A DNA stretch of 20,485 bases from a virus (lineage: Duplodnaviria > Heunggongvirae > Uroviricota > Caudoviricetes): the IMG/VR virus record IMGVR_UViG_2568526635_000006, positions 1-20,485 of that record; one strand, 5' to 3'. The position numbers and the translations under genes were made by a program. Positions 8,178 to 8,425 of the stretch are shown in pieces (the stretch's first letter is position 1; each line of letters opens with the position of its first letter). The notes under the pieces were generated by a model that had not been told where the DNA came from, ran no database searches, and saw nothing but the letters and a program-made list of their open reading frames with translations.

Positions 8178-8199
8178 TGATTTTTAAAGCAGAGAAAGT

Positions 8200-8231
8200 G
8201 AAAATAAAAACATGCCGCAAGGCGCGGCATG
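8200..8231 (-). terminator. Rho-independent terminator oriented for the minus strand, probably ending the hsdR transcript
   Basis: CATGCCGC-aaggc-GCGGCATG hairpin; on the minus strand it is followed by TTTTTATTTT. About 195 nt downstream of the hsdR stop. Confidence 0.5.
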
Positions 8232-8259
8232 TATCCAATCAATCACAGGAGCTGAAAAT

Positions 8260-8346
8260 ATGAACACGGCATTCAAAATCATTATGACCGCGATCTATTT
8301 CTGGCTGTTCTCTATCACTTTTGGCAGCATTGTCGCGCATAGGTAA
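8260..8346 (+). CDS. Candidate 28-aa hydrophobic peptide (single predicted transmembrane helix)
   Basis: ATG 8 nt after AGGAG; product MNTAFKIIMTAIYFWLFSITFGSIVAHR. Lies between the minus-strand terminator and a 10-bp-stem hairpin (8378..8405), antisense to the hsdR 3' UTR. Could be a small membrane or toxin-like peptide, or spurious. Confidence 0.3.
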   Translation: MNTAFKIIMTAIYFWLFSITFGSIVAHR

Positions 8347-8425
8347 GGGGAGTATATTAGCCATTTGGAACCCCACGGTCTCTTGCGGGTTTAATTAAGA
8401 ACCCGCAAGAAAAACACGAATTGGG

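Follow-up and report, generated by a model that had tools for sequence, protein, structure and literature searches.

A probable small membrane-protein gene of the P1 backbone, stranded beside a type IC restriction cassette

Phage P1 (Lobocka et al. 2004, GenBank AF234172) is among the closest described relatives of the element considered here, a stretch of 20,485 nucleotides (positions 1 to 20,485 of IMG/VR record IMGVR_UViG_2568526635_000006; "the window" below is this whole stretch) in which a 28-codon open reading frame (ORF) with a hydrophobic product lies at the border of a restriction cassette. From the pap gene through the stop codon of the small ORF the two are 96-97% identical in DNA, and they have in common an operator for the C1 repressor, the predicted promoters and a hairpin (hairpin 1). 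They differ in what follows: in P1, whose record leaves the small ORF unannotated, pmgT, pmgU and pmgV come 9 nt later, whereas the window has an inverted hsd cassette, and the P1 peptide has A10, G23 and G28 where the window allele has T10, S23 and R28. The exchange of P1 genes for hsd was reportedly first described by Tyndall et al. in 1997, in work said to deal with the restriction cassette and its flanks and with no peptide gene. In the EcoR124I and EcoDXXI type IC loci, as in the window, the cassette has the Op88 region on one side and phd/doc on the other, and the HsdR of the window is essentially that of EcoR124I; unlike the window, hsd loci of incompatibility group F (IncF) plasmids have this flank cut by IS1 at the equivalent of window position 8267, leaving a start-less relic of the small ORF.

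Two further groups resemble the peptide itself. Unannotated small single-pass membrane proteins of bacteria and phages are like it in size, in their single transmembrane (TM) helix, in a strong Shine-Dalgarno (SD) sequence and in the scarcity of annotations, although the peptide has no homology to any named example. The toxins of type I toxin-antitoxin systems (Hok/Gef, Ldr, TisB, Ibs, ShoB, Fst) likewise have fewer than 60 residues and one hydrophobic helix, and in the window element only there is the further likeness of a fully overlapping convergent transcript, predicted from hsdR; unlike them, the ORF has no family match, no dedicated antisense gene and no predicted SD-sequestering fold, its promoter is repressor-controlled, and in most relatives it is the first cistron of an operon. 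Our preferred reading, to which we give a probability of roughly 0.7, is that the ORF is a bona fide small gene belonging to the P1 backbone, encoding a single-pass membrane peptide as the first cistron of a C1-repressed accessory operon, and that it was stranded when an hsd cassette replaced the rest of that operon.

The small open reading frame and its promoter region

The P1 annotation was mapped onto the window by homology (offset 76132), and the features around the small ORF are these:

8161..8177, plus strand: C1 operator OpmgT (formerly Op88), ATTACTCTAATAAATCT, overlapping the pap stop codon
8162-8167 (-35) and 8185-8190 (-10), plus strand: predicted sigma-70 promoter P2pmgT, from the P1 annotation
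8177-8182 (-35, TTGATT) and 8200-8205 (-10, GAAAAT), 17-nt spacer, plus strand: predicted sigma-70 promoter P1pmgT, from the P1 annotation
8210..8232, no strand assigned: hairpin 1, ACATGCCGC-n5-GCGGCATGT, starting 5 nt past the P1pmgT -10, with a T-run at 8200-8209 on the minus strand
8212..8259, plus strand: in-frame upstream extension from ATG 8212, giving 44 residues
8235..8252, plus strand: conserved leader and SD block, CCAATCAATCACAGGAGC, with AGGAG at 8247-8251 inside it
8260..8346, plus strand: very probable small membrane-protein gene of 28 codons, ATG 8260, stop TAA 8344-8346, product MNTAFKIIMTAIYFWLFSITFGSIVAHR

Direct reading of the sequence puts the AGGAG 8 nt upstream of ATG 8260. 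Of the 207 ATG-started ORFs of 20-60 residues in the window, this is the only one that combines a 5-mer SD sequence with a TM-like stretch (19 residues with a Kyte-Doolittle mean of at least 1.9), and shuffled windows hold a mean of 0.03 ORFs with both. Some automatic annotations begin further upstream, and the 44-residue version has been annotated in SJ46 (as a "membrane protein") and in phi456 (as Orf75). ATG 8212 lies within hairpin 1 and has no counterpart in the other three lineages described below, so the SD-proximal ATG is taken as the start, and the upstream one is probably not real. The P1 reference record, RefSeq plasmids and most P1-like phage records all lack an annotation for the small ORF. 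It very probably is a true gene, seldom annotated, whose product is a tiny membrane protein with a single helix.

The window comes from a P1-like phage-plasmid. The P1 C4 antisense RNA and isrK are recognized by Rfam at 19924-20134, and the 401 nt around the small ORF are 100% identical to many Escherichia coli plasmids of roughly 75-215 kb, on which the Prokaryotic Genome Annotation Pipeline calls pmgS/pap-like genes, HsdR, HsdS, HsdM, Phd, Doc and C1 and leaves the small ORF uncalled. Phage P1 matches window positions 8102-8350 at 96%, and by local blastn its homology spans 5602-8350 and is picked up again at 14592, an arrangement that assigns the small ORF to the P1 backbone and not to the hsd cassette. 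An earlier reading of this DNA from the sequence only had described a 28-codon hydrophobic ORF with AGGAG 8 nt upstream, of a kind often missed by annotation, at a cassette border and opposite the 3' region of hsdR. All of this was borne out by the direct reading, by the silence of the P1, RefSeq and most P1-like records, by the end of P1 homology at 8350 (4 nt past the ORF stop) and by the position of hsdR on the minus strand at 8426..11542, convergent with the small ORF.

The peptide has one lysine near its N-terminus and then about 19 hydrophobic residues. The best 19-residue Kyte-Doolittle mean is 1.95 for the 28-residue peptide of the window and 1.95-2.1 across all lineages, and AlphaFold2 predicts one helix with a predicted local distance difference test score (pLDDT) >90 over the hydrophobic TM core. 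Because the P1 clade has only four residues after it, the helix is taken as the conserved core of the peptide. The longer versions in other lineages have net-acidic tails of 20-29 residues, and these tails, together with K6 ahead of the helix, suggest an N-in/C-out orientation. Scans of Pfam, NCBIfam, PHROGs and PADLOC with the peptides of the four lineages gave no match at E up to 1.

The operator at 8161-8177 departs from the C1 consensus ATTGCTCTAATAAATTT at one position of the 15-nt core, and the window contains six C1-operator-like sites where 0.10 would be expected. OpmgT, in the small ORF's promoter region, is annotated in the P1 record as a C1-controlled operator, and control of Op88 by C1 is taken from the P1 literature; in P1-like phage-plasmids the small ORF is, in short, conserved just downstream of a predicted C1-repressor-controlled promoter. 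The window operator itself has ATTACTCT... in place of the ATTGCTCT... found in every other lineage and in 73 of the 75 unique P1-like sequences; this G-to-A change at 8164, a conserved operator position, might weaken C1 repression of the small-ORF promoter.

Conservation across four lineages

A common layout is found in four diverged lineages, namely the P1 clade, Cronobacter phage JK004, a group of Salmonella plasmids and the Logan contig L146, with the order operator, -35, 17 nt, -10, hairpin, a block CAATCAATCA..GGAGC, ATG and small ORF. The operator core ATTGCTCTAATAAAT(A/C)T recurs in all three relatives of the P1 clade, and the promoter geometry is readable in them too, as TTGTTT-17 nt-AATAAT in JK004 and TTGATT-17 nt-AAGAAT in the Salmonella plasmids and L146. 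In JK004, whose Pap is 71% identical, pap is followed by the operator ATTGCTCTAATAAATAT, the promoter, the hairpin, the block CCAATCAATCACCGGAGC and an ORF of 53 residues (MHLIFKLAITAFYAWMLTVVITSFKP...), of which the record annotates only an internal fragment and whose stop overlaps the next ATG (ATGA). The same series follows pmgS in the Salmonella plasmids p21-SA00706-0 and pCVMN1543 and ends in an unannotated ORF of 46 residues (MHTVFKLAMAAFYIWIFTIVFTGIAK...), a protein that occurs in 401 blocks of the collection index with varying downstream genes. L146 has operator, promoter, hairpin and SD as elsewhere and an ORF of 48 residues (MNTAFKLAMAAFYFWIFCIAFNGLVK...), whose stop overlaps the next start (TGATG). 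The P1 clade and JK004 have CCAATCAATCAC-N-GGAGC in common; the Salmonella plasmids and L146 retain CAATCAATCA and GGAGC, with T replacing the last C (CAATCAATCATCGGAGC). The spacing from SD to ATG is optimal in all lineages.

Over the 26 codons that could be aligned among five sequences, DNA identity between lineages is 50-76%, and there are 7 invariant columns at first, 17 at second and 5 at third codon positions (Fisher p=4e-4), which is the pattern expected for a hydrophobic helix under protein-level selection and would not be expected of a non-coding element. M1, F5, K6, A11, Y13 and W15 are invariant, outlining an N-terminal TM segment M..FK....A.Y.W, with synonymous differences at F5, K6 and A11, and the two other reading frames contain stops in several lineages. 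Frame and start are kept, with codon periodicity, across the four diverged lineages, as protein-coding genes are expected to show. Conservation of the frame was one of the checks proposed along with the original description of the ORF, and it came out in favour of a gene, the frame being kept in the four lineages and intact in 108 P1-like loci.

These 108 loci, from IMG/VR, were anchored on the SD block, an earlier ORF-internal pattern having been dropped for its bias to intact copies, and in every one the 28-codon frame is free of frameshift and nonsense changes. The small ORF is followed by pmgT in 73 of them and by an hsd-type flank in 35. Diversity within the ORF is 0.014, 0.005 and 0.030 at the three codon positions, and the ratio of nonsynonymous to synonymous changes is similar in the pmgT-type (3:4) and hsd-type (9:8) loci, numbers being small. 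T10 and S23 of the window are also found in JK004, and the hsd-linked allele therefore looks old, not decayed. Along window positions 8102-8343, synonymous-site diversity falls about five-fold from pap to the small ORF within approximately 100 nt. Some IMG/VR variants (P0018-P0021, L086) continue with unrelated sequence at the equivalent of window positions 8311-8316 or thereabouts (...FWLFS|GSVP, ...FWLFSI|NKK and ...FWLFS|MEGA); such changes after codon 18/19 in independent variants suggest a recurrent recombination breakpoint in the ORF.

An exhaustive profile search of 1.84 billion representatives returned 12 proteins, all of them variants of the small peptide and one a new lineage (L146), so far as this search reaches a family confined to P1-like elements. 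Word-based protein searches with the peptide found near-identical variants only, a metagenome scan with degenerate DNA patterns found only P1-like and JK004-like copies plus chance matches, a scan of genome contigs with Pap found just two E. coli-type loci, and phage D6, searched by tblastn with the peptide of L146, has no copy that this search could find.

Two side observations concern the neighbours of the module. In the Salmonella-type (L136 1440-1500, L137) and L146 (2834-2900) lineages, which are without pap, the operator and small ORF directly follow pmgS; between these two conserved modules pap looks to have been either inserted or lost. All three non-P1 lineages have, next after the small ORF, a gene for a conserved protein of about 105 residues, unrelated to pmgT, with the motif GPGN(I/M)IF.(I/L)CKRNWRGY.VHQL (L116 3245-3559, L136 1755-2071, L146 3147-3464).

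Hairpins, restriction cassette and junctions

Hairpin 1 was called in a scan as a minus-strand terminator-like site, with the stem at 8232..8210 followed by the tail TTTTATTTTC. Its predicted folding energy is -17.2 kcal/mol (z -3.1) for the plus strand and -16.3 kcal/mol (z -3.9) for the minus strand, where, at the same site in P1 as well, it has the G+C-rich stem-loop and U-run of an intrinsic terminator. Hairpins occupy the equivalent site, about 7 nt past the -10, in JK004, the Salmonella plasmids and L146, with stems that differ: ATGCCGC/GCGGCAT in the P1 clade, GGCCGC-n9-GCGGCC in JK004, and AGGCCAC-n9-GTGGCCT in the Salmonella plasmids, with the same stem in L146. Such different stems at one position are consistent with compensatory change. 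A terminator scan of JK004 and the Salmonella lineage found no minus-strand T-run at this position, and because the T-run is limited to the clade of P1 and the window, the conserved role of hairpin 1 is more likely on the plus strand, as the 5'-terminal stem-loop of the small-ORF mRNA; a 5' stem-loop can stabilise an E. coli mRNA. In the P1 clade it can presumably also terminate leftward transcription, here that of hsdR. A minus-strand terminator had been proposed at 8200..8231, and its stem (8232..8210) and T-run are there, but a terminator role is not what the lineages conserve, the T-run being found in the P1 clade only. The SD block is unpaired in the predicted centroid fold, and pairing of the leader and ORF with the C4 and isrK RNAs of the window was no better than with shuffled sequences.

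On the far side of the small ORF the features belong to the cassette and its edge:

8350..8351, no strand assigned: left junction of backbone and cassette, 4 nt past the ORF stop; in P1 this is the pmgT SD sequence
8351..14591, minus strand: type IC hsdR-hsdS-hsdM cassette of 6.2 kb, substituting for P1 pmgT..humD
8381..8410, no strand assigned: hairpin 2 (stem of 12 bp), part of the hsd cassette and 16 nt downstream from where hsdR stops
8426..11542, minus strand: hsdR, 1038 residues, full length, convergent with the small ORF

The core of hairpin 2, CTTGCGGGTT-n8-AACCCGCAAG, lies at 8382..8409 and is extended by RNAfold to 12 bp (-19.9 kcal/mol, z -6.5); a hairpin with a 10-bp stem had been described at 8378..8405, and it is real, with its position 4 nt further to the right. 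Its 5' arm and loop are present in the 33-locus and 2-locus hsd-type groups of P1-like loci. As a canonical terminator it was rejected, a T-run or U-tract being missing on both strands, and because of this hsdR transcripts may cross the small ORF as antisense and then stop at 8232-8200.

The HsdR of the window aligns with EcoR124I HsdR (PDB 2W00) over residues 1-1038 with 2285 bits and is near-identical to it, and on this full-length match the cassette is classed as a type IC restriction-modification system of the EcoR124I family; hsdS and hsdM are annotated next to hsdR in the identical plasmids. The P1 segment that it displaces, 84483-87969, holds pmgT, pmgU, pmgV, upfM-O, hot, lxr and humD, a stretch known as "variable region 8" of P1-like phage-plasmids (PMC9603915). 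In a CRISPR interference screen of P1, pap, pmgT, pmgU and pmgV scored as non-essential (PMC10695390). Notes in the P1 GenBank record give the P1 DNA at the left junction as 96-98% identical to what lies downstream of the EcoDXXI and R124/3 hsd loci, and report a match of the phd side to the DNA upstream of EcoDXXI hsd; a passage of PMC12707154 cites Tyndall et al. 1997 (PMID 9157244) for hsd loci flanked by P1 DNA. On the IncF plasmid pYDC107_184 (L138, 5249-6094, the equivalent of window 8267-8360) the P1-derived hsd flank ends at IS1A inside the small ORF, and the type IC cassette on conjugative IncF plasmids apparently left a P1-like element carrying part of the backbone with it.

At the right side of the window, pacB (18345-19829) is followed by a C1-operator-like site (19833-19847), isrK (19924-20002) and the C4 antisense RNA (20047-20134). 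This placement of the immI region (19830-20134) after pacB is unlike P1 and the otherwise near-identical plasmid pLH09-a-D, both of which have c1 there. The order pacB-immI is also found in phages JL22, RCS47 and 673R5, so the arrangement marks a known subgroup, not an oddity.

Weighing the explanations

Several observations weigh against a genuine C1-controlled gene. The lineages compared are four only, and literature searches (Op88, pmgT, P1 ribosome profiling, P1 transcriptomes) turned up no translation or transcription data on the ORF. The promoters are predictions, a simple promoter scan of the window having made no call at P1pmgT or P2pmgT, and the operator base A at 8164 is rare (2 of 75 unique P1-like sequences). 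In stability the hairpins of JK004 and Salmonella do not exceed shuffled sequences (z -0.4 and -1.3), and the stems were compared by eye, MAFFT having put them out of register. Within the P1 clade 12 of 21 distinct mutations are nonsynonymous, against 72% expected under a mix of transitions and transversions (p=0.11), and third-position diversity is 0.03 in the small ORF versus 0.15 in pap, a low value that points either to an extra constraint on the DNA itself or to homogenisation, through recombination, along the border of the variable region. Rare variants have altered tails or recombination junctions inside the ORF at codons 18-19, because of which the peptide can clearly do without its C-terminal part and may be dispensable as a whole.

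The sequence-only reading had likened the locus to a type I toxin-antitoxin system, in which the mRNA of a membrane toxin is silenced by antisense RNA, here read-through from the 3' end of hsdR. With 28 residues the peptide is within the 60-residue limit, hydrophobic and helical, and with no U-tract at hairpin 2 no canonical minus-strand terminator is reached until past the ORF (8232-8200), such that hsdR transcripts would plausibly cover the whole ORF and its SD sequence as antisense, fully complementary as far as the terminator. However, 73 of the 108 P1-like loci have a co-directional pmgT and no convergent gene there, and the other three lineages are co-directional too; since this is the arrangement downstream in two thirds of P1-like loci and in all the other lineages, the antisense overlap with hsdR reads as a by-product of the cassette. 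A consensus scan, which weak promoters could escape, found two weak minus-strand promoter matches near the ORF in JK004 and none in P1, the Salmonella plasmid or the window. By the P1 annotation the ORF's own promoter is repressor-controlled, not constitutive; the SD sequence is unpaired in the predicted fold; the family libraries that gave no match include known type I toxins; and what the IncF hsd flank holds of the ORF is just a relic, its 5' part cut off by IS1. With no conserved antisense promoter, no match to a toxin family and a backbone ORF behind a C1 operator, the proposal is left unsupported, and we consider it very unlikely.

Two other explanations give the peptide itself no role. 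It could be a leader or coupling ORF, translated so that ribosomes are delivered to the first downstream accessory gene, its product irrelevant, and a functionless leftover in the hsd element. The stop does overlap or abut the next start (ATGA in JK004, TGATG in L146, and in P1 a gap of 9 nt, the stop codon being covered by the pmgT SD), the C-terminal tails are wholly different between lineages, and in some variants junctions fall inside the ORF. Mere coupling has no need, though, of fixed aromatic and lysine positions or of 17 invariant second codon positions out of 26, and the ORF is intact in 35 of 35 hsd-type loci without a co-directional gene, with a nonsynonymous to synonymous ratio like that of the pmgT-type loci (on small numbers), all of which leaves this account unlikely. 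Alternatively there is no gene, and what is conserved is DNA or RNA (promoter, operator, leader) that doubles as a recombination "anchor" for the variable region, the open frame being incidental. Here one can point to nucleotide diversity in the SD block and ORF below that of pap third positions, to a cassette boundary 4 nt past the stop with other junctions inside the ORF, and to the lack of significant selection on the protein within the P1 clade. But frame, start, hydrophobicity and six residues are kept at a between-lineage DNA identity of just 50-65% in the ORF, conservation has a period of three and peaks at second codon positions while alternative frames are closed in several lineages, and an SD sequence stands at optimal spacing in all lineages; we hold an incidental frame to be quite improbable.

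On the preferred reading, that of a small gene in a C1-repressed accessory operon, transcription would begin at PpmgT (operator Op88) directly after pap, with the small ORF as first cistron. The predicted start, about 7 nt past the -10, would give the mRNA a 5'-terminal stem-loop (hairpin 1), an unstructured CA-rich leader and a strong SD sequence. With PpmgT under C1 control, the peptide would therefore be silent in the repressed plasmid prophage, and on infection or induction it would be made ahead of whichever accessory genes fill the variable region. In the window element the EcoR124I-type hsdRMS, in the opposite orientation, has replaced pmgT..humD, making the peptide gene a stand-alone unit that converges with hsdR, and hairpin 1 with its A-run (a T-run on the other strand) would stop hsdR transcription before pap and pmgS. 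The peptide is most likely a non-essential, membrane-embedded accessory factor during infection or induction.

A bolder idea, which we regard as unlikely, is that, in P1-like elements with hsd, a switch between lysogeny and lysis is made up of the C1-gated promoter, the peptide gene and convergent hsdR, and that, separately, the peptide founds a new phage family of small membrane proteins, with a specific target in the membrane. Leaky expression of the peptide would be silenced in the prophage by read-through from hsdR as far as the backbone terminator; once C1 was inactivated, transcription from PpmgT would meet no plus-strand terminator and would pass the peptide gene and enter hsdR as antisense, so that restriction fell while the membrane peptide was made.

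The significance of a C1-repressed small gene at this site would be moderate, the gene being of a familiar kind and no function attached to its peptide. If the reading is true, it adds one repressor-controlled gene to the P1 backbone that is missing from the reference annotation of a thoroughly annotated model phage, and it explains the ORF fragment in the DNA flanking EcoR124-type hsd loci on unrelated plasmids. A further suggestion is that a hairpin of the backbone has been taken over by the restriction cassette for use as a terminator. In Enterobacteriaceae, P1-like phage-plasmids commonly carry genes for resistance and defence, and the small ORF would mark the exact left edge of their cargo hotspot, variable region 8, in which type IC restriction systems and other cargo are swapped.

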